From positions 83,434,503 to 83,498,502 of the forward strand of contig NC_057718.1 of the NCBI RefSeq assembly GCF_004010195.1: a stretch of DNA of 64,000 nt. The letters are read 5' to 3'. The position numbers and the translations under genes are program-made. The notes under the pieces were generated by a model, which made no database searches, had not been told where the DNA came from, and worked only from the letters and a program-made list of their open reading frames with translations. Positions 40,401 through 63,095 of the stretch are shown one piece after another. The stretch is from Chiloscyllium plagiosum. Its lineage: Eukaryota. Within the stretch, counting starts at the first letter, position 1, and every line of letters begins with the position of its first letter.

Positions 40401-41194
40401 TACATCTCCATGACAGTGAAGGAACCACAAAGCTACAAGTCAGGTTAGCAAGTGACTTGGAGGGGAACTGGCAAGTAATGATATTCCTAAGACTTTACTG
40501 CACTTGTGCTTCTATGTGGTTGAGGTCATAGCTTAAGAAAGTGCATTCGAAGTAGTCTTGCTGTGTTGTTGCATCGCATTTGTAGATGGTAGACACGAGT
40601 GTGAATATGCATCAGTAGTGGACAGAATGAATGTTTAACAGTGAATGTTATGCAAATCAGATAGACAGTTTTGATCTGATTGTTATCAAGCTATTTAAGT
40701 ATCATTGAAACTGTGCTCATCCAGGCAACTGGATGGCATTCCATTGCAAACTTCACTCGAGTTTTGCAGATGAAAGGCTCTGAGGTGGTAGATCATAAGT
40801 TACTGCAGAATTTGCATCCTTTTACCTGTTTTTTGAGCCACAGTAGTTAAATGACTTGTTCAGTAGTTTCTGGTCAAGGGTCAGCCCCCAGAATATTGAT
40901 GGTGGGAAAGATCCCATGATTGCTGGGGTGAAAAATATGTACAACTCTCCTCTAGTCCTCCTACCAGTGAATTTAAATCTATGCCTGTGATTATTGACCT
41001 CTCTCGCTCCTAAAGGAAACAGGTCCTTCTTTTCACCGTCTAGACCTCTTCTAATTTTATTCACCTCAACTCCATCTACCCTGAATTCCTCTGATCAAAA
41101 CAAACAAGCCCAGCAAATCCAATTTTTCCTCTCAGCCAAAAATCTCCATTCCTGGCAATAACCTTGTGAATTACCTTTTTTTAAAATTATTGGA

Positions 41195-41517
41195 ATCCCT
41201 AGATTCGGCCCAACAAGTCCACAACAAGCCTCAGAAGAGTAACCCACCCAGACGACCTATTTGCCTCCCTTATATCTACCCCTGACTAATGCACCCTACA
41301 AGTCCCTGAACATTATAGGCAATTTAGCATGCCAACTCACCTAACCTGTATATCTTTTGGATTCTGGGAGGAAATCGGAGCATCCAGAGGAAATGCGCAC
41401 AGACACGGGGAAAATATGCAAACTCCACACAGACAGACAGTTGCCAGAGGCTGGAATCAAATCCGGGATCCTGGCGCTGAGAGGCAGCAGTGGTAACCAC
41501 TGAGCCACTGCGCCACC
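41195..41517 (-). mobile_element. HE1/V-type SINE nested in an old CR1 fragment
   Basis: Head gggtggcgcagtggctcagtggttaccactgctgcctc on the minus strand. Confidence 0.9.
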
Positions 41518-41657: not shown

Positions 41658-41885
41658 CTGTCGAGCGTGTGGTGCTGGAAAAGCACAGCCGGTCTGGCAG
41701 TATCTGAGGAGCAGGAGAATCGACGTTTCGGGCATAAACCCTTCATCAAGAATGTTCATTTCTGATGAAGGGCTTATGCCCGAAACATCAATTTGCCTGC
41801 TCCTCAGATGCTGCCTGACCTGCTGTGCTTTTCCAGCATCATGCTCTCTACTCTGATCTCCAGCACCTGCAGTCCTCATTTGCTC
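41658..41885. mobile_element. Palindromic Penelope-derived mini-element with hammerhead cores and 14-bp TSD
   Basis: Inverted arms centred near 41755; TSD caaaattggaatta at 41644-41657 and 41886-41899. Confidence 0.85.
41762..41789 (+). ncRNA. Minimal hammerhead ribozyme core
   Basis: CUGAUGA-A-GGGC(UUAU)GCCC-GAAAC-AUC; the mirror copy on the minus strand (41722-41749) reads UUGAUGA-A-GGGU(UUAU)GCCC-GAAAC-GUC. Confidence 0.6.
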
Positions 41886-43104
41886 CAAAATTGGAATTAT
41901 TATAAGTTTTGTGATCATTTTTCCAAGCAAAATACAAAACCGATAGAAAATGCAAAATATCACATGGACCAGAGACTTTATGCCAAAATTCAAAGTTTAC
42001 CAATCATTCAAGTTCACGTCATGTAGATGAGATACGCATCGGATCACTCCTAAATCTCATCAGTTTACATTTTAATTCAGTTAGCTCCTTAAAGTTCCAA
42101 AGCTGGTACCTGCTGAGATCTGTCTACAAGTAGTAAATCATAAACACTGTTCTTTTGCAAGATTCCACTGAGTTGCAGAAGTCTGTTTGAGTGATCCTAT
42201 TATCACGTAAAAGCAATTTTTGTAACTTTGTAACCCCAGGGCTAAGAATGATTCTGCAAGTCCGATGACTTTACACTGCTGCTTTGATGGCCTTAATTTG
42301 GGGCAAACAGAAGATGCTACAATCTCCATGAAGACTGTTAACATTTAAAGACAATTTTGAAGTGATTAATAGGAATAACTATCACAAAATTTCATGTCTT
42401 AACTAAAACTTTACCTGAAAAAAATAAACAAAGCATGCACTATTGCCTTAACACTATCGGTGGTCAAGCCTACCATAAACCCAGCGTTCCTCCAACTTCC
42501 TAATTCTACTCAATATGCTACCGGACCTTGAGGGTTCATTTACTCCACTTTATACCACGGTTCTCTGGAATTAATTTGGATTTCTATCACTGATTTAACT
42601 ATTCTTCAAGGTGCAAGTTTTTTTTGGAACCCTTCCACTACCACTTGATTAAAGGACCTTCCAAGATCCCAAAATATTATCAGGTTACAGCTATTGCAGT
42701 GTCTGGTGGCCATCAGCCATTAATATATCCTTTCATAACATTATTTAAATGTGCAAGAGTAAGGAATCTAGGATGAGATACTTAATTGTGATTTCTGCAC
42801 TGATGATGATGATGATGATCAGGTCCACAGCAACCATACAGTAAAATTAATTTCTGCTGTGCAACACCCAAACGATCATGATCTTTGTGAGACTTGCAGA
42901 AGAAATTGCTGCTAATGGTTGGTAGGAAGGCAGAATGAGAAACTGCTGACATCAGCACATCAGACACTTATTCAAGTTAAAACTCAAATGCAAAGAACTG
43001 CATAAACAAATTATTTTAAAAAAAACACTTCAACAGATATTGCCTTATTCATGCAACAAACAATTTATACGCAGGGTGTTCAGAAAAGCAAAATACCCAT
43101 TTGT

Positions 43105-45625
43105 TGAGTCATACAGTAGGGAAACAGACCTATCAAATTAAAGGACCATTCACACCAATTAGATACCCTAAACTGATTAGTCCCACTTGCCAGAATTTGG
43201 CCCACGTGCCCCAAACACCTTCCTATTCATTTACCCATCCAGGTGCCTTTTAAAATGTTGTGATTGAGCCTGCCTTCACTACCTTTGACGGCAGCCCATT
43301 CCATACATGCATCACCCTCTGTGTGAAAAATTGCCCCTCAGCTCCCTTTTAAATCTTTCCTCACTCACCTTAAACCTTTGCTTTCCAGTTCTGGACTCCC
43401 CTGTGTTGGGAAAGACTTTGGCCCATGCCCTTCATGATTTTATAAACCTCTAAGGTCACCCCTCAGCCTCCGATGTTCCAGGTAAAACCATCCCAGCCTA
43501 TTCAGTTTCTTCCCATAGCTCAAACTCTCCAATCCCAGCAACATTCTTGTAAATCTTTTCTGAACCCTTTCAAGTTTAACAATATCTTCCCTATAGAAGG
43601 GAGTCCAGAACTGAATGTAGTAGTCCAAAAGTGGCCTCACTGATGTCCTGTACAGCCCCACATGACATCCCAAATACTATATTCAATGCACTGACCGATG
43701 AAGGCAATTGTGCAAATGCCTTCTTCACCACCCTATCCATCCGCGACTTAATTTTTAAGGTGTGCACCTGCACCTCTAGGTCTGTTTGCTCAACACCATT
43801 CCCTCAGGACCTACCAGTAACTGTGTAAGTCCAGCCCTGGTTTGCCTTAGCAAAATGTAGCACCTCACATTTATCTAAATTAAACTCCACCTGCCATTCC
43901 TTGGCTCACTGGCCCAATTGATGGAAGTTCGTTATATTCTAAGGTAACCTCCTTTATTGTCCACTACACCACCTATTTTGGTGTCATCTGCAAACTTACT
44001 AACCATATCTCCTATATTCTCATCCAAACCATTTGTATAAATGACAAAGCAACAGACCTAGCATCAATCGTTGCAGCATACCACGGGTCACAGGCTCTCA
44101 GTCCAAAAAACAACCCTCTACCACTACCCTCTGTCTCCGAGCTTCAAGCCAATTTTGTATTCAATTGACTACCTCCCGCAGATTCCATGTGATTAATCTT
44201 ACAAACCAGGCTACAACGTGGAACCTTGTCAAACGCTTTGCTGATTTACAAATGCACGTAAACCCTGTCCCTCAGAAACCCCTCCAACAACTTACCCATC
44301 ACTGACATCAGGTTCACTGGTCTATAGTTCCCTGACATTTCCTTACAGCCTTTCTCAAATAATGGCACATTAGCAACCTTTCAGTTTTCTGGCACCTCAC
44401 CCATGGCTATCAATGATACAAATATCTCAGCAAGGGCCCAGCAATCTCTTCCCTAGTTTCCCACAAATTTCTGGGATACATCTCATAGAATCTCTACAGT
44501 GAGAAAACAGGCCATTCGGCCCAACAAGTACACAATGGTTCTCCGAAGAGCATCCCTTCCACCTCACCCCATCCCATCTCTGCACCTCCCATGGCCAATC
44601 CACAAAGTCTACAATTCCTGGATGCAAGGGGCAATTTAGCACAACTAATTCACCCAACTTTCACATCGCTGGACTGTGGGAGGAAACCATAACACCCGGA
44701 GGATACGCACACAGACACAGGAGTGCATGTGCAAATTCCACACAGATAATAACCCGAGGCAAGAACTGAACCTAGGTCCCTGGTGCTGATCAGCTCCCAG
44801 GGATTTATCTACCTTTGTGCATTATAAGACCTCCAGCACCACCTCATCTGATGTATGGACACTTTTCAAGACGTCACAATTTATTGCCCAAATTCCCTTG
44901 CTTCCATGTCCTTCTCCACAGTAAACACCGATGTGAAATGTTTGTTTAGTATTGCACACATCTCCTGTGATTTGACACAGATGGCCTTGTTGATCAAAGG
45001 AGCTTCTCTCCATTGTTACTCTTTTGCCCTTAATGTATTTGCAGAATCTCTTTAGATTCGCCTTAACCCTACTTGGACAAAGCTATGTCATGTCCCCTTT
45101 TTGCCCTCCTGATTTCCCTCGAGTATACTCCTACTACCCTTTTACTCCTCTCGAGATTCATTCAATCCCAGTTGTCTATTCCAGGCATAGGCCTTTTTTT
45201 TTCCTTGACCACAGCCTCAACTTTTCTAGTCATCCAGCATCCCCTACATCTACCAACCTTGCCCTTGAACTAACAGGAACATATTGTCTCTGAACTCTTG
45301 TTATGTCATTTTTGAAGGCCTTACACTTTTCAATTGCCCCTTGACCTGCGAACAGCCTCCCTCAAATCAATTTTTCAAAGTTCCTACCTAATACTGTCAA
45401 AATTGGCATTACTCCAACTAGAGCTTTAACTTTTAGATCAGGTCTATCCTTTTCCATAACTATTTTAAAATTAATAGAATTATGATCACTTGCTCCCCCA
45501 CTGACATCTCAGTCAATTGCTCTGCCTTATTTCCCAAGAAAGAGTCAAGTATTGTTCCTTCTCTAGAGAGGTAAATCCACATATTAAAGAAGGAACTTTT
45601 CTTGTACACATTTAAAATTATAGAG
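43105..45625 (-). mobile_element. CR1/HER1 LINE, decayed, interrupted by a SINE at ~44484-44787
   Basis: Colinear with the 29052-31700 copy. Confidence 0.9.
44484..44787 (-). mobile_element. HE1/V-type SINE, 5'-truncated
   Basis: ggactgtgggaggaaacc...gcaaattccacacaga V-domain. Confidence 0.85.
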
Positions 45626-45639
45626 AGACCAATATAGTA

Positions 45640-48140
45640 CAAACTAAAGTTTTCGTGAGGATCTGTAATTTGGGAGCTGGTTGGATTCATTGTTGCTCTG
45701 TTCGCCGAATCGCAGGTTTGTTGGCAATATTTCATCCATTTTCTAGGTGACATCATCAGTGCTGTGTTGCCTCCGGTGAAGGGCTGCTGCACTGTTCCGC
45801 TTTGAACTTATGTGGTTCCGTTTCAGCTGTTTCCAGTTGGTGCTAGTTCCGGTTTTCCATTGCAGCGGTTTGTATTTTGGGTCTAGGTCAGTGTGTTTGT
45901 TGATGGAGTCCAAGGATGTGTACCATGCTTCCATGAATTCCCTTGCTGTTCTTTGTTTGACCTGTCCTAGCATCACAGTATTGTCCCAGTCAAATTCATG
46001 GTTCATATTGCCCGTGCATACGGATACTAGGGAGAGTTGGTTATGTCGCTTGATTGCGGTTGGTGCTCATGGATGTAGGTTGCATGTTGTCTGCCAGTTT
46101 GTCCACATAGTGCTTAGTGCAGTCGCTGCATAGGATTTTGTAGATTACATTAATCCTGCACAGAGTGGGTATCGGGTCCTTTATTCAAGTGAGCCACTGT
46201 CTGAGAGAGGATGCCAGTTTATATACTGTCAAGATCCCTAGTGGTTGCAGCAGTCTGGTAATCAGTTCTGAAAAGTTTTTCATGTATGGGAGAGTAGCCA
46301 GCGCGTTGTGAGGTGCCTTGTCTTCTTGACGTTGTTTGCCCGCCAGGCATCTGGGGACGAAACTGTGGGGGTATCCATTTTTGGTAAAGACTTTGTATAG
46401 ATGTTCTTCTTCCCATCTTCGCAGTTCCAGGGTGCTGCAGTGTGTTGCTGCTCTCTTAAACTAGGTCCCAATGCAGCTCCTCTTGCAGGTGTTCGGGTGG
46501 TTGCTGTTGCAGCTTAGGATCTGATCAGTATGTGTGGTGTTTCTGTTCATTCACCATTCTGTGTCCTTGTAACCATTATATCTATGAATGGGAGTTAGTT
46601 GTTGTTCTCCTCCTCTCCAGTAAATATGATCCCAGTGAAAATACTGTTGACCTTCTGGTGTGTTTTTAATTTCAACTCTTTTGATTATCATAGAAGTGTT
46701 ATCTACATGTCTGACCCATAGCTTGGGTTGGATCTATGGGAGGGCTCTCTGTTTGAGCTTTTGCATTACTGCATTAGCGATGAGCCCCAAGATGGGTGAG
46801 CCCTTGGGTGTCCCATTGATTTGCTCATTGAAGTATGACCATTGAAGATGAAGTATGTTGTTAGGCATAGGTCAAGTTGTTTTGGTATGTCTTTGTTGAT
46901 TGATTCATATTCGGTTTGTCTGTAGTGGCTGTCCAGGAGCTTTGCTACAGCTTCTTTGACTAAAGTTATGTCACTTGAAGTGTCAAATGAGACTGCCACC
47001 TCGCCTTTGTCGATATTCATGTTCCTGATGTTGGCCAGAAATTCCTGCAATAGAGTGTATGCAGTGTGTAGCTCTGCTAATGAGGTATTGAAGCGTTGGC
47101 TGTAGTTCCTTAGCTAGCCTGTGCATAGGCGTCGCTGTAGGAACACTATGGGTCTAAAGGGGGTGTTGGGTTTATGTACCTTTGTGAGTCCATAGATTTG
47201 TGGGGTGTTCATACCTTCTGGTTTCATACTTTGTAAGTCGGTCTTGGTTACGAGTACATTTTGATGTAGGTTCCATAGTGTGTTGATGGTTCTATTAGCT
47301 AGTACTGGTGTCGATTCAGTTTCCCTCTGTTGGTAGGTGTTGGTATTTGAGTAGTCTCTTAGCCTTTTGAATGCGACCTGTTTTCTCCATTACCACTCTC
47401 ATTCGGCTTTTGTCAGCCAGTGCTATTACTATGTTTAGATTAGTTTAGATTAGATTAGATTCCCTACAGTGTGGAAACAGGCCCTTCGGTCCAACAAGTC
47501 CACACCGACCCTCCGAAGAGTAACCCACCCAGACTCATTTCCCTCTGACTAATGCACCTAACACCATGGGCAATTTAGCATGGCCAATTCACCTGCCCTA
47601 CACATCTTTGGACTGTGGGAAGAAACCAGAGCACCCGGAGGAAACCCAAGCAGACATGGGGAAAATGTGCAAACTCCACACAGACAGTCACCAGAGGCTG
47701 GAATTGAACCTGGAACCGTGGTGCTGTAAGGCAGCAGTGCTCACCACTGAGCCACCGTGCCGCCTGTGTCCTTTCTTAGGACTTCTCTCCTTCACATTCA
47801 AGATGTTAGTTTGTCTTCTTGTCAGTGCGGATGCTATGGCTTGTCTGATGGCCAGCTGTATTTCATCTGTCAAAAACTGCTTGTTTTTAGTGTACATTCC
47901 AGTGCTGCTAGGAAGTCTGCCTTCCTGGCGTACTTGTAAGTGTAATTGTGTCCTCTCATCCGTGCTGCACTCTTGGTGTCTGATTGTTGTCTCTTTGGTA
48001 TGTTTCTTACCCAAGTGTCTTTTGGGGTGTCTTCTTTGTTGGGGGGTTAGCTTGGCTAGTTTTTCTCGCAGTGTCATTCTTTTCTTATATGTGGTTCTGT
48101 TCGGTCCTATGGTAACGGTCTGTTCGAACGTCGTAGTCCA
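45640..48140 (-). mobile_element. Penelope-like element, RT plus GIY-YIG endonuclease, decayed, interrupted by a SINE
   Basis: RT pieces VHKPNTPFRPIV (~47145-47180), AVSFD, LDLCLTTYFIFNG, GTPKGSPI and WVRHVDN; endonuclease NVIYKILCSDCTKHYV (~46100-46150) and HEFDWDNT...REFMEAW...SINK; degenerate hammerhead CUGAUGA...GAAA at 45730-45759 in the 3' terminal repeat. Confidence 0.88.
47435..47764 (-). mobile_element. Full-length HE1/V-type SINE nested in the Penelope-like element
   Basis: Head ggcggcacggtggctcagtgg and (TAATC)n tail. Confidence 0.92.
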
Positions 48141-49074: not shown

Positions 49075-49522
49075 GAGGGTACATACATAAGAGAGAAATC
49101 AGGAGGGCAAAAAGGGGACATGAGATAGCTTTGGCAAACAGGGTTAAGGAGAATCCAAAGGGACTGCACAAATACATTAAAGACAAAAGGGTAACAAGGG
49201 AGCAAACAGGGCCCCTGAAAGATAAGCAAGGCAGCCTGTGGGTGGAACAGCAGGAGATGGGTGAGATACTAAATGAGTATTTTGCATCAGTGTTTACTGT
49301 GGAGAAGGACATCTATTTCCTCACAGAATGTGAGGAAATAGATGGCGACATCTTGAAAAATGTCCATATTACAGAGGTGGTGTTGCTGGATGTCTTGAAA
49401 CGCATAAAAGCGAATAAATCCCCAGGACCTGATCAGGTATACCCTAGAACTCTGTGGGAAGCTAAGGAAGTGATTGCTGGGCCCCTAGCTGAGATATTTG
49501 GATTATCATTAGTCACAGGTGA
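49075..49522 (+). mobile_element. CR1 ORF2, left part, split by the ERV
   Basis: ORF 49131-49556 is CR1-like ([16 protein letters not shown]...LVTG) up to the LTR junction. Confidence 0.9.
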
Positions 49523-50175
49523 TGAGGATCTGAAACCTGAATACAGGCTGAGGTAACTAGCTGTTGTCAGGATCAACCGCTTAATAGGTGTTCTTAATAA
49601 CTTAGGTGGCAGTAAAATGGCTCAATGCAAATAGCATGACAAAATGGCTTCTCGGCTGCAAATTGACAAATCTGCTATAGCTGCATAACTGACTAACCAC
49701 AGTCTGCTTCAATAGAGGAGATTAGCAGATAATGTTCCCTTTACAGCATAGAAATAACCAGACTAGATAAGACATTACTGGCCATCCTAACTGATCTTCA
49801 GATGCAGATGCAAAGGCTCGGTTAGTGAGATAAGGGTGGCCTGTGTGTTGGGAAAAAAAAGTTGGTTGCCAGGAAATATTACTGGATCAAGTAACTGTCA
49901 AATAACATAACATCGTGTATCGATTGGTAATTGTTTGATGTACTGTGATAATAGCCTGTACCCTTCTTTAAGTTAAATATAAAAATGTCTTTGTTTTAAG
50001 CCATGCGTGCAGCTCCTCAGAGGAAGACGGGTGCACACAACCTCTGTGTTTCTGGATGCTCTGTACCCGGCCGTTTGAAGTAATAAAGAACCAGATTGAT
50101 TGTGAGTACTTATTGACCGATCACAGAACAGAACAGAGAACCTCCCCCCCCAGCCCGGGGACTCAAATTCGGTCA
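49523..50175 (+). repeat. 5' LTR
   Basis: Starts TGAGGATCTG, ends GGTCA; TATAAA at 49978-49983, AATAAA at 50082-50087; direct repeat of 55955-56852. Confidence 0.9.
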
Positions 50176-50178
50176 AAT

Positions 50179-50188
50179 TGGCGTTGTC
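50179..50188 (+). promoter_or_regulatory. Partial primer-binding site, tRNA-Ser-like
   Basis: TGGCGTTGTC begins after a 3-nt spacer behind the LTR end; one mismatch to the recalled tRNA-Ser PBS TGGCGTAGTC. Confidence 0.5.
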
Positions 50189-50550
50189 TAAATTGATTTC
50201 CAAATTATTCTGTGAAAGACAAAACAAAGAAACATTGCGATATATTATAGCAAGACTGTCAGGGTTTTAGAACGTTGAGGATGTTTTGCAGAAATCATTA
50301 GTCTTGTTGTTCGTTGTCGGGTTGTTGATTAGTGGAGTTTTAGAATTATCTTCTCTGTTGTATCTGTTTGGCTTGTCTGGTTTGTCTGCTATGGTTTTGT
50401 CTGCTTGTTTTGTTTTTTTTTGTTTATGAAATATAGAGGGTGGTTGCTGCTTATGTCACATTAAAAGAAGAAAGCTGGCCAGTAATACAATTCTCTCACA
50501 CTCGGTTAAGCAGCTATTTGCCACAGCCAGGATTTATGAGACTTAACTCC

Positions 50551-50647
50551 CTAACTTTGACTGTTCTGGAATGCGAGTGCCCCACTAACTTTGACTGTTC
50601 TGGAATGTGAGTGCCTCATTACCCTTACAATGTTCCTGTGTGCGTGC

Positions 50648-50695
<48 letters not shown>

Positions 50696-50697
50696 GA
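50551..50697. repeat. 31-bp direct repeat (50551-50581 and 50585-50615) and (GA)n microsatellite (~50650-50697) in the ERV leader
   Basis: ctaactttgactgttctggaatg(c/t)gagtgcc twice; gagaga run. Confidence 0.9.
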
Positions 50698-52109
50698 CTC
50701 AAGTGTTGATTCCCTGCTGCTTGCAGAAAGTTTAACCTTTTGAGATTCGGTTTGAATGCACATTTGCTTGTTGGTGATTGAATGTTTGTATTTTGTTGCC
50801 TGGAGCTTGAGGTCCAGGACTGTTTTGAATTTGATTTGCATTTTGGGGATTTAACATGATTTCTTTTAAGGTTAAGGATCCATCAGTGATTATGAAATGA
50901 AATATTAACCCCTGTTCTTCTTACAAGCCATGACTGCCCTACTGCCAATTTCTAACCAATCACTTTTATGCTTACATGAAAGCTAATCTTATTTAATTTC
51001 AAATCAGTTTAATATGGAGAAAGATGACATTGTAATTTTTTTAAAAACATCTTCTCCTTTGATTCTGCACCATTTGACATCAGTATAAACTTACCCTCAA
51101 ATTCCCTATAATTTCATTCTACTGCCAAAGGTCATTTTCACTCCTCTTACCCTTACGTGTTGTACTAATGAAAGAATTGACTAAAGGAAGTAAAGCAGCA
51201 GCACTAAACCTGGGCCTCAGGTGCATGATCATTCTGTTCCAGGATGACAGCAAGTCTCTGCTCAATTTTTGTTATAATCTAAACTTAACATTGACGAAAA
51301 TCACTTCAGACTTTAACATTTGCTCACTGAGTGGATGAATTGTATGAGCCTTACTTAATTTAGTTAAACTTTGTAAAACTGGAAATATAAAGATAGATCC
51401 AAATATCCCAAACCAACAGCATTGTTTTCAGAAAATGATACTAGCAGATTTAAATTTTTGTTTCAGATTAGTTTGTTTCCACTTAAAGACTGCTGTGTTT
51501 CATTGGTGATTATAGTATGCCAGTCGTAGCTTTATTTTCTATCAATTCCCTTCCCTCAATAAGGATAGAAGTTTCAGTTCAACATTATGTCTTGATAAAT
51601 CATGTTACAAAATTAACATCCTATTTTTAACATCTGTGTCTTTAGATTCAGCAATTATTCATGCATTAGAAGGTTTTTTGTTACCATGTGAGTAGACAAC
51701 GCCTTTTAAGGCAGCTGCAGTCATTTCACGGCCTACAGCATTGTAAATGAGCAATGACTGGTCAGGACCACTTAAGGAACCTAGTCTGGGATTTAAATTA
51801 AAGGACTAGAACCAGGTAATTTTAATGGATTTCAGAGTTGGAAACTATATATTTTACATTTAACTATTGAATACTGGATAAATGAATTTTCAGTTTATAT
51901 TGATGACTTTTAAAATGTCGTAGTCATTTGTTCAGTTTCCACCTCTGAATTAGATATGATGATATTTTTAAAAATTATTAATTGTATTAGACCTGAATCA
52001 CAAAATCAGATGTAATTGGTAGAATTGCTTGGTTTTATTCCTTTACACATTGTCAGTGACCTGTCTCATTGCTTCATGGTTAATTTGAAGCATGACTGCA
52101 TTAATTCGT

Positions 52110-52900
52110 TGCTAATGAAAGAATGGAAAGATACGTTCCTGGCCATTTGATGAAATTCTGCATGTGATTGGGGGATGGAGGTAAGTATAGCAGATGGAAC
52201 TCCCAAAAGCTGGGAGATGTTCATAACTGACTGTAATTGGGTAGATGAAAAAAAATAAAAGGAACATGAGATTAAAAAAATAAAAGGGACATGAGATACA
52301 GTCTAAGGCCACTAAGGCTGAAGAATGTACAAACAGGTTAAAGCAACACCACTGTAAAATAAAGAACTTAGATTTTACTTGGAATCCTGAGCCTATGTAT
52401 GGCATACCGACCCTATTTGAGGATGGGGATTTTAATCCTGGATACCCGCTGAGCCCCTAACATCTCCTGACTGTCCCCAGCACATGCTTCCCCCCCCCCC
52501 CCCCCCCATTACAAATGTCTCCTTCTTTTGAAAATGAAGCATCCAGTCTTCATAGCTGATATCATGGGGACGAGCGGCCTGAGCCATCCTAAACCAGGGC
52601 CTATCCCGGGAATTAGAGCAATGTTAATGAAGCATGTCCCTGATCGCAAGAACAAACCGGCCCAATTTGCTCAATATGTCCAAGGGTGATACAGATGTAA
52701 ATGCACCAAAATTCTGGGAGTGGCTTGTATTATGTGAATATATGTGAAATATGTGGCTGTCTGTCTGATGGAAGTGGTATACAATTGAAAAAATAATCAA
52801 GAAGCTCAAATGACCTTTATTTTAACCCTATGCTTTTGCAATGTTTTCCTCCTGGTGTCACTGACATAATTCAGACAAACAATATGAACTAGGAATTTCC
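52110..52900 (+). pseudogene. Possible gag remnant
   Basis: WPFD matrix-like motif at 52140 and a poly-Pro run ending PPHY (PPxY late-domain-like) at 52490-52512; otherwise unreadable. Confidence 0.4.
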
Positions 52901-52979
52901 AGTCGCAAATGAAGCGAATAGTGGTTTTCTATTGGAATGGCCAGAACCAGACTGAACCATGATGTAAGTTACAGGTAAA

Positions 52980-53940
52980 ACCGATTATATCCAGTGCCCT
53001 TGCGATCCCAAATGCCATGTGCCAGCCCTGACAGGGCTGATTGGGACCAAGTCACTAGGGGTGGAACATACCTCAGATGCCCACCAGCGACCACTAAGCA
53101 ACCTTTTCCTGAGGGGACCCTGGAAATGGGGACAGGCAAACCCCAGTATTACACCTTTGACACTTTAAGCAAGACAGCAAAATCTTTCAGGGACAAATGG
53201 CTGACCCATGCTTTAACTGTGGAAATGTGGCCACTGGGGAATGATGTGTCTTTAATGTTACCTTGGAGCTAATGTGGGGATCGACATGCTTGTGTCCTAG
53301 CAAAAGGAAAATCTGCTAATATACACTGACTCTTAGTTCTGCTTTTGGTGTGACCCACGATTTGGGAGCCTTGTGGGCACATGCAGGGCTTTTAACCTCC
53401 ACGGGGCAGCATAATAGTAATGCTGTTTTGTCCAATCAATCGGGCAGTTATCAAGATGTTCAGCTCACGATACCACTGATAGTTTCCAAAGTAATGAGCA
53501 GGTCGATGCTGCTGCCAAGCAGGCAGCCTTACACCCTAAAGTTCTGGTCCCACTGGGCCCCTAGCAAAACATGGATAGAGACAATATGGGGATAGGTATG
53601 CCAGAGCTGGATAAGGTACAAAATTACAGGGGGAACCCACTGCTGAAGAGCACAAACTATGGCCTCAAATAGGGTACCCCCTCGATACTCAAACCAAAAT
53701 ATGGGTGACCCCTACTGGACAAGTTTGTGTTCCTTTTTTGCTGCTGCCTATTATAGTTGATTATTTGTATTATTGTACATACTTGGGCAAGGAGGGAACG
53801 GTTTATACTCGATTACAATGGACACGTCGCGACCGCCAACCTCGATGGGAGGGGCCCTTTCAGGTTCTCCACACCATCCCTACTGCTGATAAGGTTGCCA
53901 GGCACGTCCATCATTGCAAGGTCATCGCATGTGCCCCATG
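52980..53940 (+). pseudogene. pol: pol remnant: RNase H, integrase N- and C-terminal pieces; RT and integrase core deleted
   Basis: ACVLAKGKSANI/YTDS/AFGVTHDLGALWAHAGLLTSTG (53285-53410, frameshifted), NEQVDAAAKQAA (~53493-53528) and PRWEGPFQVLHTIPTADKV...HVHHCK match gamma/epsilon-type pol motifs. Confidence 0.85.
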
Positions 53941-53964
53941 CAAAGGTGGTGGTGGGGGGAAGAG

Positions 53965-55800
53965 GTGAAGAAAATCGAACTTACCCTGTTATGTGGACTC
54001 GTCGTTATTGACATTTGTGCTCAAGAAGGGACTATTTACCAGTGTGAACCTGAGTAACCAGAGACTGTGTACCATTTAGGCCAAAAAGATGTCATTGTGT
54101 GCTAAGAGACTGATTCCTTCGATGCATGGAATATTACCAAGAATGACTGCTGCAATGGTCAACTGCATCAAGATGATCGGACAGTTTGCTTACAGGACAA
54201 GTCTCAATGGTCTTTACCCTGACAAGGTGTTTCATGCTAGTTTGATTTCAATTGTGCCATGGCGGTCCTAGTAAGCCTTGCCCCTACCCAAAGAGGTCTA
54301 AATCTGCACGCCACAAAAGAGAAAAGGGGGAAATGCCATCTTTCACTAATAATTTCTTTTTTCAAAGTCACAACAAAATATTCAGTTGGGATGAAGTGAT
54401 CTGTTACACCCTCTCATCAGCAAAGGACTCCTTGAGCTGAAAATGTGTTGCTGGAAAAGTGCAGGTCAGGCAGCATCCAAGGAGCAGGAGAATCGACATT
54501 TTGGACAAGAGCCCTTCTTCAGGGATGAAGAAGGAATGCCCGAAACATCGATTCTCCTGCTCCTTGGATGCTGCCTGACCTGCTGCGCTTTTCCAGCAAC
54601 ACATTTTCAGCTCTGATCTCCAGCATCTGCCGTCCTCACTTTCTCCTAAAGGACTCCTTGACCCCTTTCCCCCTCCCAAATCCCAATGACGGAGTATGGA
54701 ACACTTCTAAGACATTTACCGGACATAATGTTTTTTTTCAAATGTACTAACTGCTACTGCTCCCCTGTGGGGCCTCGCATTATTACCGGTGTTCAGGTTC
54801 TTTGTGGTAAGAGTGATGGCACCCACCTTCACTATGAGACTCCTAATGGCACCTCCATCTTCCCAATTGTGGGATGGAAGGAACCAGTCTGGGACAATAA
54901 CTGCATCTCTTACTAAAAGACGTACCTCTTTTTATTGAGCAGCTTTCGCCCTAAGCGCCCAGGGCGACCATACTTTGTAGCCATGGACTACCCATACGTT
55001 TAGGTAGTCACAAAGACAGGCCTGCGTCTTACTGGGAAGCCCCCTCCATTATCTATACCAAACCCGGTTACTATTTTCTCAGCCAAGGCAGAGCGACCAA
55101 CTTCCTTGTTCTTGATGAAATAGGTACTTCCCATGCTGCAACTGTAGGGACACTTTTTCCCGACTACTGTTCCCTGTCCAACAATCTGGGAATGGGGTTG
55201 GGGTTTCCCTCCCACATGTTCAGTTTCACCTGAATTCTGCGTGCATTGGAGAGGTGCTAAGGCCTTGGGAACAGTAAAGCTCAATCTACGGGCTACGCAT
55301 TTCTTAGTACTTTTTCCTTAGGAAGATCTGCAAGAATTATTAGCCATCTAAACCAAAACTATTTTATTTGCAGTCTCACCCTCGTGGGCAACGAGACAGC
55401 CTCGGCCTTAGCAGGAGTTAAGGACATGCTCTCAGAATTACATCTATTTTCCCAGCAAAGCCGGTAAACCCTCAACTACCTACTCGCCAAAGTGGATGGG
55501 GTTTGCGCCATAGTAAAGGGCAAGTGTGTGATGGGGGTTATTGACCTCATTGAGAACATTACCAAGCATTTAGATAACATCCGCACCTTCGTCAATCAAA
55601 TGACAGAAAGCACTAGATGGGGAGATTGAGGTTTTGGCTCATGGTACAATTGGTTGATAAATCTGTCTATGTATATTAGTATTATTTTAATTTGTCTCTT
55701 TGCTGGCATTGCTATTGTTAAATGTATTATTGCCAAGCTAAAATTTTCTGTTGACAAAATCGGCTTCCCCCCAGAAAATGCTTCTTCTCCGTCCAAATGA
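53965..55800 (+). pseudogene. env: env remnant (class I fusion glycoprotein with filovirus-GP2-like TM)
   Basis: Signal-peptide-like start KIELTLLCGLVVIDICA; TM frame 55261-55800 with heptad repeat, immunosuppressive-domain-like R*TLNYLLAKVDGVC, CX6C, Trp-rich juxtamembrane segment and membrane anchor; stops at 55465 and 55627. Confidence 0.88.
54436..54647. mobile_element. Palindromic Penelope-derived mini-element inserted in env, 14-bp TSD
   Basis: TSD aaaggactccttga at 54422-54435 and 54648-54661; inverted arms each with a degenerate hammerhead core. Confidence 0.88.
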
Positions 55801-55942
55801 AGGTGAGGAGGAGAGGTTGCCTACCCCTACTTTGTCTGAGGAGGAGGAGGAGTAGGAGGAAGTATGGCAGTTTCTAGTATCCATTCAATTGGATTGATCT
55901 AATCTAAGCCGTCTCATCCTATGGTGTGGTCATGGAATGACC

Positions 55943-55954
55943 AAAGGGGAGAGA
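55943..55954 (+). promoter_or_regulatory. Polypurine tract
   Basis: AAAGGGGAGAGA directly before the 3' LTR. Confidence 0.8.
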
Positions 55955-56852
55955 CGAGGATCTGAAACCTGAATACAGGCGGAGGTAACTAGTTGTCAGG
56001 AACAACCGCTTAACAGGTGTTCTTAATAATGTAGGTGGTAGTAAAATGGCTTCTCAATGCAAATAACATGACAAAATGGCTTCTAGGCTGCAAACTGACA
56101 ATTCTGCTACAGCTGCATTATTGACTAACCACAGTGCTTCAACAGAGATTAGCAGACAATGCTCCCTTCACTGCATAAAAATAACCAGACTAGATAAGAC
56201 ATTACTGGCCATCCTAACTGACCTTCAGATGCAGCTGCAAAGGCTCAGTTAGTGAGATTAAGGTGGCCTGAGTGTTGGAAAACAAAGTTGGTTCCCAGAA
56301 AATATCACTGGACCAAGTAACTGTCAAATAGTGCAATATCGTGTAGATTAGATTACATTACAGTGTGGAAACAGGCCCTTCAGCCCAACAAGTCCACACC
56401 GACCAGCTGAAGCGCAACCCACCCATTCCCCTACATTTACTCCTTTACCTAACACTATTGGCAATTTAGCATGGCCAATTCACCTGACCTGCACATCTTT
56501 GGACTGTGGGAGGAAACCGGAGCACCCGGAGGAAACCCACGTAGACACGGGGAGAATGTGCAAACTCCACACAGACAGTCGCCTGAGGCGGGTGTATCGT
56601 TTAGTAATTGTCTGAATGTACTATGCGATCATAGCCTGTGCACTTCTATAAGAAAAGTATAAAAATGTTTTTGTTTTAAGCCATATGTGCAGCTCCTTCA
56701 AGGAATACAGATGTACACAACCTCTGTTTCCGGATGTTCTGTACCAGGCCGTACGAAGAAATAAAGAACGAAGCCTTAGAACCAAACTGATTGTGAGTGC
56801 TTATTGACCGATCACGGAACAGAAAGACCGCCCTCCGGGGGTCCAAGGCTTC
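55955..56852 (+). repeat. 3' LTR, interrupted by a SINE
   Basis: Direct repeat of the 5' LTR; TATAAA at 56658-56663, AATAAA at 56760-56765; exact right end uncertain. Confidence 0.88.
56346..56591 (-). mobile_element. 5'-truncated HE1/V-type SINE inside the 3' LTR
   Basis: Absent from the 5' LTR; flanked by the TSD gtgta (56341-56345 and 56592-56596). Confidence 0.93.
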
Positions 56853-57405
56853 GAGATGCTGGAAGACTGAAGGCTGGTGAACGTGGTGCCACTATTTAAG
56901 AAAAGTGGTAAGGGAAAAACAGGGAATTACAAACCGGTGAGCCTGACATCAGTGGTAGACAAGTTGTTGGAGGGAATCCTGAAGAACAGGATTTATATGT
57001 ATTTGGAAAGGCAGCGATTGATTCGGGACAGTCAATATGGCTTTGTGCATAGGAAATCATGTCTCACTAACTTGGCTGAGTTTTTTGAACAAGTTACAAA
57101 GAGGATTGATGAGGACAGAGCACTGGACGTGATCTATATGGACTTCAGTAAGGCGATCGACAATGTTCCTCAGGGTAGACTGCTTAGCAAGGTTTGATCA
57201 CATGGAATACAAGGAGAACTAGCCATTTGGATATAGAACTGGCTTGAAGGTAGAAGACAGAGGGTGGTGGAGGGTTGCCTCTCAGACTGGAGGACTGCAT
57301 CCAGTGCTGTGCCACAAGGGTCGGTGCTGGGTGCACTGTTTTTTGTCATTTATATAAATTATTGAATGTGAACATAGGAGGTATGGTTAGTAAGGTTGCA
57401 GATCC
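56853..57405 (+). mobile_element. CR1 ORF2, right part, continuing the copy split by the ERV
   Basis: Resumes at gatgctggaagactg; ORF 56877-57197 NVVPLFKK...GNYKPVSLTS...YMDFSKA. Confidence 0.9.
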
Positions 57406-62924: not shown

Positions 62925-63095
62925 GTGTGGTGCTGAAAAAGCACAGCCGGTGAGGTAGCATCTGAGGAGCAGGAGAATCGACGTTTCGAGCATGAGTTCT
63001 GATGAAGAGCTCATACTCAAAATGTCAACTCTCCTACTCCTCAGATGCTGCCTGACCGGCTATGCTTTTCCAGTACCACATTTTTTGACTCTGAT
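62925..63095. mobile_element. Palindromic Penelope-derived mini-element
   Basis: Inverted arms around ctgatgaagagctcatactcaaaatgtc; same family as 41658-41885. Confidence 0.8.

Follow-up and report, generated by a model that had tools for sequence, protein, structure and literature searches.

The origin of the filovirus and reptarenavirus glycoproteins (GPs) bears on gene exchange between retroviruses and negative-strand RNA viruses, and the closest described systems to the locus reported here are endogenous retroviruses (ERVs) of cartilaginous fish. According to the main text of a 2024 study (PMC11521997, Nat Microbiol), retroviral elements in Chiloscyllium, Scyliorhinus, Amblyraja and Leucoraja contain hits related to the filovirus ectodomain, the cartilaginous-fish ERV ectodomains are sister to those of ebola-, cueva-, marburg- and dianloviruses (posterior probability 0.83), Tapajos virus groups with ERVs of Mabuya and Varanus, and filoviruses and reptarenaviruses are inferred to have captured retroviral ectodomains three times independently. 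In a term search of that main text, cysteine, CX6CC, fusion loop, disulfide and GP1 were all without a match. Passages in other sources report that filovirus and arenavirus GP queries cross-match ERV glycoproteins (PMC11089739), catalogue gamma-type envelope proteins (Envs) of anamniotes, six cartilaginous fish among them, with their CXnC variants (10.1101/2021.11.23.469661), and discuss structural homology between the retroviral surface subunit (SU) and GP1 together with both directions of transfer (the Hotzel preprints, 10.1101/2021.11.05.467493 and 10.1101/2023.10.07.561363). We describe here an ERV within a 64,000-nucleotide stretch of the Chiloscyllium plagiosum genome (NCBI RefSeq assembly GCF_004010195.1, contig NC_057718.1, positions 83,434,503 to 83,498,502 of the forward strand), the whole of which we call the window, and in particular the remnant of the transmembrane (TM) subunit of its Env.

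Our reading, to which we assign a probability of about 0.9, is that positions 55238-55800 are the dead TM subunit encoded by env in an old and degraded class I ERV that inserted into a long interspersed nuclear element (LINE), and that this ERV is one member of a large and diverse cartilaginous-fish family. The link between shark ERVs and filovirus GP2 is already known, having been published in 2024 (PMC11521997, main text), and the window copy is a dead member of the published kind; the locus thus adds one more decayed copy, not a new link. The landmarks of the TM remnant are as follows.

55238-55800, plus strand: env TM remnant, homologous to the TMs of the same family at other loci
55238: first fusion-loop cysteine
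55369: second cysteine
55390-55398: NET sequon
55465-55467: TAA stop codon
55504 and 55525: cysteines of CX6C
55555-55563: NIT sequon
55627-55629: TGA stop codon
about 55654-55734: membrane anchor, preceded by a tryptophan-rich membrane-proximal region
55798-55800: terminal TGA

The frame read from 55351 is the one that opens at 55261, and it runs for 180 codons including the stops at 55465 and 55627; an earlier inspection of the letters without database searches (the sequence-only reading) had quoted this translation with its two stops, and it was reproduced to the residue. That reading had further aligned the TM, without gaps and with 27 of 77 identities, to an Ebola GP sequence. With the GP2 of Ebola Zaire taken from a solved structure (P0206, PDB 6F5U_B, which includes an engineered change), the alignment holds: across the 77 residues beginning at NQNYFIC, 27 are identical with zero gaps, and the Cys offsets 6, 51 and 58 and the N-x-S/T sequon offsets 13 and 68 are common to the window TM and Ebola GP2, which has one further Cys, at offset 59, that is absent from the window TM. 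The best ungapped identity among 2000 shuffled controls was at most 16 (mean 10.4) against the 27 observed, and against P0209, another construct of Ebola GP2, BLASTP aligned 113 columns of the window TM with 31% identity (E 2e-14). The immunosuppressive-domain-like motif ahead of the Cys loop matches the filoviral and retroviral motifs column for column, and the stop at 55465 falls within it in the window copy. Only two features of this TM are special, the Cys at 55369 with its upstream partner and the NQN motif before 55369; the NQN...C motif is common to the window TM, Marburg, Mengla and Ebola.

To set these cysteines in context, they were counted across 167 aligned rows. A Cys pair is the loop-closing Cys (equivalent to 55369) plus a Cys 35-60 residues upstream, and the denominator for the third Cys, the one that turns CX6C into CX6CC, is the number of rows with both CX6C cysteines.

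Shark family: loop-closing Cys 29/34; Cys pair 24/34; third Cys 0/27
Mammalian filoviruses: loop-closing Cys 3/3; Cys pair 3/3; third Cys 3/3
Tapajos virus: loop-closing Cys 1/1; Cys pair 1/1; third Cys 0/1
CAS virus: loop-closing Cys 1/1; Cys pair 1/1; third Cys 1/1
Anolis-type ERVs: loop-closing Cys 4/4; Cys pair 4/4; third Cys 0/4
Alpha-like ERVs (P0107, P0130, P0138): loop-closing Cys 3/3; Cys pair 3/3; third Cys 3/3
P0019 and P0032: loop-closing Cys 1/2; Cys pair 0/2; third Cys 0/2
Other gamma-type hits: loop-closing Cys 1/119; Cys pair 0/119; third Cys 112/114

The family pairs are spaced 40-44 residues apart, and up to 60 in a few rows, and those of the filoviruses and CAS virus 45. The sequence-only reading had stated that typical gammaretroviral TMs lack the NQxxxIC Cys, and none of the 119 other gamma-type hits has the pair. 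The family thus carries an internal fusion loop flanked by cysteines, predicted to be closed by a disulfide, of the kind found in 'avian gamma-type' TMs and filoviruses, and by this loop it falls in the same TM class as the alpharetroviruses, filovirus GP2, reptarenavirus GP2 and some lizard ERVs. The residue that follows CX6C in the family is I, V, M or T and never Cys. In gamma-type retroviruses and filoviruses the third Cys of CX6CC is established as the link to SU or GP1 (10.1101/2021.11.23.469661), and its absence here suggests that the usual SU-TM (GP1-GP2) disulfide is probably missing or made elsewhere; SU and TM of this family are probably held together non-covalently or by another Cys pair. 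Loss of the third Cys is common to the shark family, Tapajos virus GP and four Anolis-type Envs (P0021, P0028, P0067, P0077, P0082).

Searched against solved structures, the window TM matches filovirus GPs best: 9x3j_A at E 1.2e-13, Marburg and Ravn GP2 at about 1e-9 and Ebola at about 1e-7, as against 7e-4 for syncytin-2, 0.34 for the TM of avian sarcoma-leukosis virus (ASLV) and 1.4 for p15E of murine leukemia virus (MLV). The matched segment of 9x3j_A is identical in reading to P0052, which its sources name Mengla virus GP. An open family copy gives the same ranking (best filovirus E 2.9e-13), and a 17-row family profile reaches the filoviruses at 8e-16 to 1e-12, CAS virus at 1e-7, syncytin-2 at 3e-6, MLV at 2e-3 and ASLV at 0.025; the ASLV TM is a weak match throughout the solved-structure searches (E 0.015-0.34). 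The retroviral TMs in the PDB are only mammalian and avian, and the filovirus-first ranking is therefore in part a sampling effect. In a broad search, a full HMMER run of the family profile against 1.84 billion protein representatives, 585 hits were obtained at E <=1e-3; the best match outside the family is Tapajos virus GP (81 bits), followed by about 30 Envs that are mostly CX6CC, such as a Stegostoma 'PABLB Env-like' protein (79 bits) and a Scyliorhinus 'syncytin-A-like' protein (72.6 bits). Word-index searches added little, as the TM region of Tapajos virus GP retrieved only itself and P0001, compared with longer proteins, gave 313 candidates with none at E <=1e-3.

A careful tree was built from 59 rows and 166 columns with the loop included; it is unrooted with respect to the direction of transfer. 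It sets 35 loop-bearing TMs apart from 24 ordinary gamma-type TMs (90/85), recovers the family as a clade (97/93, starred) with Tapajos virus as its sister (99/84, starred), and groups the shark ERVs, the Anolis-type lizard ERVs and Tapajos virus, all of which are without the third Cys (94/70). The mammalian filoviruses lie inside the loop class and do not adjoin the family (85/26, 93/57, 94/70). Forcing them into one clade with the family costs 12.5 log-likelihood units (lnL) and is not rejected by the approximately unbiased (AU) test (p 0.09), and forcing Tapajos virus together with the Anolis-type ERVs costs 0.79 lnL (AU p 0.49), so the placement of Tapajos virus as sister to the family is not robust. 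The tree data fit the published topology without bettering it, and to say which retroviral lineage donated which filoviral GP2 is beyond the power of the present trees. Varanus, Mabuya and tarsier ERVs are not among the tree rows, and P0019 and P0032 are labelled shark in the trees without a host name. These two are short TM-like proteins that sit at the base of the family clade and group with each other (100/99, starred); they could come from hosts other than cartilaginous fish.

The sequence-only reading had proposed that this ERV lineage carried a fusion subunit of filovirus or reptarenavirus type and might be a link in envelope exchange. What it had observed was accurate and what it drew from this was sensible, and the interpretation is supported in part: it stands as regards the loop and membership of the loop class (the 90/85 branch), and is not supported as regards the third Cys (0/27 in the family vs 3/3 in the mammalian filoviruses) and a GP1-like SU, of which six family proteins gave no signal. 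A direct sistership to the mammalian filoviruses was not recovered and was not rejected either.

The retroviral nature of the element, claimed in the same reading as a class I ERV with a retroviral env TM, is supported by the pair of long terminal repeats (LTRs), the polypurine tract and the integrase remnant at the locus, and by a fuller related copy (L027) elsewhere. Upstream of its env, L027 encodes zf-CCHC (the gag zinc knuckle), RVT_1, RT_RNaseH_2 and RNase_H, and its reverse transcriptase (RT) fragment is closest to that of Moloney MLV (MoMLV; E 6.5e-12), with the RTs of foamy virus and human immunodeficiency virus (HIV) behind, which supports the label 'class I'. The family is abundant in the host genome (3.56 Gb), where there are at least 151 scored TM matches out of 2012 first-look candidates, with 37-74% identity to the window copy, and named TM relatives are found in Mobula birostris, Heterodontus francisci, Pristiophorus japonicus, Hemiscyllium ocellatum and Rhincodon typus. 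Some relatives in Heterodontus francisci (P0006, P0010, P0222-P0224) and one in Hemiscyllium ocellatum (P0012) are annotated as 'syncytin-1-like' or 'ERV group FC1 Env polyprotein-like', which indicates that open env frames of this shark family are being annotated as host genes.

The provirus occupies 49523-56846 and its parts, with the LINE on either side, are the following.

49077-49522, plus strand: 5' part of the LINE RT open reading frame (ORF); the stop-to-stop ORF 49077-49556 shows LINE RT motifs up to the start of the LTR
49523-50166, plus strand: 5' LTR, from direct repeats D5, D8, D9, D11 and D12 and pairwise alignments; starts with TG and ends with CA
50344-53832, plus strand: internal stretch in which gag-pro-pol is not recognisable and the gag-pol block of the fuller relative L027 is lacking
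53801-53949, plus strand: integrase C-terminal remnant, from a sub-threshold MLVIN_C match and DNA homology to L027 over 53833-53949
53966-55237, plus strand: env SU remnant, interrupted by stop codons and frameshifts; colinearity with L027 begins at 53966
54436-54647, no strand assigned: dispersed-repeat insertion within SU, seen as a gap in the L027 colinearity; families D4, D6 and D7
55943-55954, plus strand: polypurine tract, a purine run abutting the first base of LTR homology
55955-56846, plus strand: 3' LTR, from alignment with the 5' LTR; holds a short interspersed element (SINE)-like insertion of about 250 nt at 56341-56600
56847-57197, plus strand: 3' part of the interrupted LINE RT ORF; ORF 56871-57197 continues the LINE RT

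The two LTRs are 88% identical over 588 aligned columns (Kimura two-parameter distance 0.13), which corresponds roughly to 30-130 million years of divergence at assumed neutral rates, unmeasured in this host, of 0.5 to 2.2e-9 per site per year. The LINE RT ORF is cut cleanly by the provirus (49077-49522 and 56847-57197), with an in-frame TGA just past the junction. The SINE-like repeat (about 250 nt; families D1-D3 and D10) is present in four copies, at 41184-41517, 44495-44721, 47465-47764 and 56359-56592, with 65-91% identity to the reference copy; as one of them lies inside the 3' LTR, the SINE inserted after the ERV. A second dispersed repeat (D4, D6, D7) occurs at 41667-41890, 54440-54650 and 62925-63078, and also in the pol region of L027 (3640-3745); its halves give similar peptides on both strands, and it thus looks palindromic or like a miniature inverted-repeat transposable element (MITE). 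There is also a (GA)n-type microsatellite at about 50580-50720, inside the 3.5-kb stretch that replaces gag-pol, and it is translated as RE and SL runs.

Comparison with L027 by blastn shows how much of the window copy has been lost. L027 270-453 matches 50156-50343 and L027 from 7126 onward matches from 53833, and for L027 454-7125 there is no colinear match in the window (the two short matches at 54435-54647 are the repeat inserted in env), so about 6.7 kb of gag-pol is missing. Consistent with this, Pfam searches in three frames found nothing of gag-pro-pol in 50344-53832, and the sole trace of pol is a match to MLVIN_C at frame-2 residues 1251-1287 (near 53801-53912; E 7.3e-4, 19.6 bits, under the cutoff of 29.2). 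A tblastn search with the full family Env P0004 aligned its residues 4-102 to 53980-54258 and its residues 335-587 to 55030-55770; env starts near 53966-53980, and several frames are needed to read it. When its three frames are set against open copies, the frame is seen to shift twice around the start of TM, near 55160-55170 and near 55275-55290, and this puts the first fusion-loop Cys at 55238 out of frame with the remaining TM. The basic cleavage motif of other family copies is not kept. With two in-frame stops, at least two frameshifts at the start of TM, a lost cleavage motif, a repeat in SU and no gag-pol, the window env copy is predicted to be non-functional.

The properties of the intact protein were approached through open relatives. 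The cutoffs of TLV_coat (PF00429; 22.5 bits) and of Ebola-like_HR1-HR2 (PF22307; 27 bits) are both exceeded by P0004, P0005 and P0008, which reach 22.7-35.5 bits for the former and 30.9, 27.6 and 28.1 bits for the latter, and the other family members pass one profile or neither: P0002, P0003, P0011, P0220 and P0225 are below the PF22307 cutoff, and for TLV_coat the open relatives score 24.1, 22.7, 35.2 and 35.5 bits, with P0011 (16.3 bits) under the cutoff. In six family proteins searched at E up to 10, no signal was found for the GP1 profile Filo_glycop (PF01611), for which a Mengla GP used as positive control scored 249.6 bits, and their SU regions had no Pfam match at the same limit. An ESM Atlas look-up of the family SU returned an Avian_gp85 cluster at 0.92 and then TLV_coat clusters, and is a language-model lead only. 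The natural TM ectodomain is modelled by AlphaFold2 as a helical hairpin (mean confidence, pLDDT, 75), and the post-fusion GP2s of Ebola (2.2e-3) and Marburg lead the Foldseek matches to this model, ahead of syncytin-1, CAS virus GP2 and the TMs of porcine endogenous retrovirus (PERV), Mason-Pfizer monkey virus (MPMV), xenotropic MLV-related virus (XMRV) and ASLV.

From this anatomy we propose that the intact family Env would be a class I fusion protein, cleaved between SU and TM at the basic site. Its TM may begin with a hydrophobic fusion loop, internal in position, whose two cysteines, 40-44 residues apart, would be joined by a disulfide, followed by a long first heptad-repeat (HR1) helix with one putative N-glycan and then by the immunosuppressive-domain-like motif. 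A CX6C chain-reversal loop would lead into a second heptad repeat (HR2) with the second predicted N-glycan, and a Trp-rich membrane-proximal region and the membrane anchor would complete the subunit.

A number of results weigh against our reading, and they are best considered together with the proposal that the window holds an ordinary gamma-type ERV TM, whose likeness to filovirus GP2 is generic and whose extra Cys pair arose independently. An ordinary shark gamma-type TM from Scyliorhinus (P0025) aligns in the same ungapped register with 23 of 77 identities and with both sequons and CX6C in register, so the 'exact spacings' that the sequence-only reading had listed are generic to gamma-type TMs. 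In the broad search, Mengla (61.3 bits), Marburg (56 bits) and Sudan (50 bits) GPs rank below the roughly 30 CX6CC Envs, and by BLASTP the window TM scores 62 bits with a Scyliorhinus Env (34% identity), 67 with Tapajos virus and 54 with Ebola. As ordinary CX6CC Envs outscore the mammalian filoviruses, similarity alone does not single out filoviruses, and the filovirus-first ranking depends on the reference set, being true of solved structures and not of a broad protein library. A quick tree (156 rows and 115 columns, with the loop columns left out) has an unresolved backbone and does not recover the split between the loop class and the ordinary TMs, and in the careful tree the branch that makes this division is not starred; the family also lacks the filoviral third Cys. 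The window copy itself passes no Pfam threshold, reaching 17.5 bits for Ebola-like_HR1-HR2 (cutoff 27) and giving no match to TLV_coat at E up to 10. The AlphaFold2 model of full-length Env P0004, made from a 24-row alignment, has a mean pLDDT of 47 and a predicted TM-score (pTM) of 0.26 with SU unmodelled, and no Foldseek match of the TM ectodomain model reaches E <=1e-3, so that the ranking discriminates poorly. The functional anatomy proposed above is deduced from the sequence. At the locus, no target-site duplication or primer-binding site could be defined, since the flanks differ and no clear TGG-type primer-binding site follows the 5' LTR; the LINE ORF is nevertheless split at both ends, which shows a single insertion.

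What speaks for the loop class, and makes an ordinary gamma-type origin quite improbable in our estimate, is that a Cys pair at like spacing (40-45) marks 24 of the 34 family rows and each of the 12 filovirus, CAS virus, lizard and alpha-like rows and none of the 119 others, that the NQN...C motif is held in common with Marburg, Mengla and Ebola, and that the careful tree sets all loop-bearing TMs apart from the 24 ordinary ones, with which the published tree agrees (PMC11521997, main text). Among the outcomes that the sequence-only reading had named as speaking against it was a TM that scores as well or better with ordinary TMs and nests among them; the first half is what we find, and the second is not. 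A quite different origin, in which a filovirus GP mRNA was copied into the genome by LINE machinery to leave a non-retroviral element, would fit the filovirus GPs being the best solved-structure matches and the position within a LINE. It is barely credible, however, because an LTR pair and a polypurine tract flank the TM with an integrase remnant upstream, related copies carry gag, RT and RNase H upstream, the copies number more than 150, the six family proteins give no Filo_glycop signal at E up to 10, and the LINE is the interrupted host and not the carrier. Such a filovirus endogenous viral element without LTRs was accordingly rejected as a candidate, given the LTRs, the polypurine tract and pol.

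Two further proposals concern who gave what to whom. The ancestor of the shark ERV lineage could have captured its fusion subunit from a filovirus-like RNA virus, and the careful tree, having no root in this respect, would allow it; a Hotzel preprint raises both directions (10.1101/2021.11.05.467493). We regard such a reverse transfer as improbable, because the loop class, which adjoins a very large radiation of retroviral gamma-type TMs, also includes TMs of alpharetrovirus-like and lizard ERVs, because the family SU looks retroviral rather than GP1-like (by the language-model lead only), and because, in the main text of PMC11521997, the ectodomain was not detected in fish filoviruses and capture from retroelements was inferred. 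Should the split between loop-class members with and without the third Cys be real, it is also conceivable, if unlikely, that the Tapajos GP came from a retroviral lineage without the CX6CC inter-subunit Cys and that a different, CX6CC-bearing donor, rather than the published shark ERV lineage, gave rise to the Ebola/Marburg-type GP2; the GP2 of mammalian filoviruses would then have a cousin in the shark family and not its closest surviving relative.

On the reading that we prefer, the element is a decayed member of a loop-bearing class I ERV family, and few retroviruses are related more closely to GP2 than the shark ERVs of this family. What novelty remains lies in the third-Cys character and its distribution across the loop class, which could bear on which lineage donated which filoviral GP2, and any donor scenario must account for the missing inter-subunit Cys in the family, Tapajos virus and the Anolis-type ERVs.

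Set beside known systems, the family resembles filovirus GP2 (Ebola, Sudan, Marburg and Mengla) in its internal loop closed by a Cys pair and in the NQN...C motif, and the window TM shares with GP2 the HR1 sequon, the immunosuppressive-domain-like motif, the CX6C loop and the HR2 sequon, aligning without gaps over 77 residues with 24-27 identities; it differs in that the family CX6C is without the third Cys, GP1 (Filo_glycop) homology is lacking, and the protein is encoded by an LTR retroelement. The GP of Tapajos virus (Tapjovirus) is like the family in having the loop Cys pair and no third Cys, whereas it belongs to a snake filovirus and its loop is CX7C. The GP2 of the reptarenavirus CAS virus likewise has the loop Cys pair, spaced by 45 residues, and falls in the same tree class, but it retains the third Cys, lies at the end of a long branch and matches less strongly (profile E 1e-7).

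Among retroviruses, alpharetroviral or 'avian gamma-type' TMs such as that of ASLV, as defined in 10.1101/2021.11.23.469661, have the loop Cys pair and, unlike the family, keep CX6CC (3/3 alpha-like TMs). Ordinary gamma-type TMs (MLV p15E, the syncytins, and the CX6CC Envs of sharks and fish) share with the family the immunosuppressive-domain-like motif, the CX6C loop and both sequon positions, and TLV_coat is passed by several open members of the family; they differ in having an N-terminal and not an internal fusion peptide, no Cys pair (0/119) and a third Cys (112/114). Closest in kind are the elements described in the main text of PMC11521997, which, like the present family, have cartilaginous-fish hosts and carry env in its position within LTR elements with gag, RT, RNase H and integrase.

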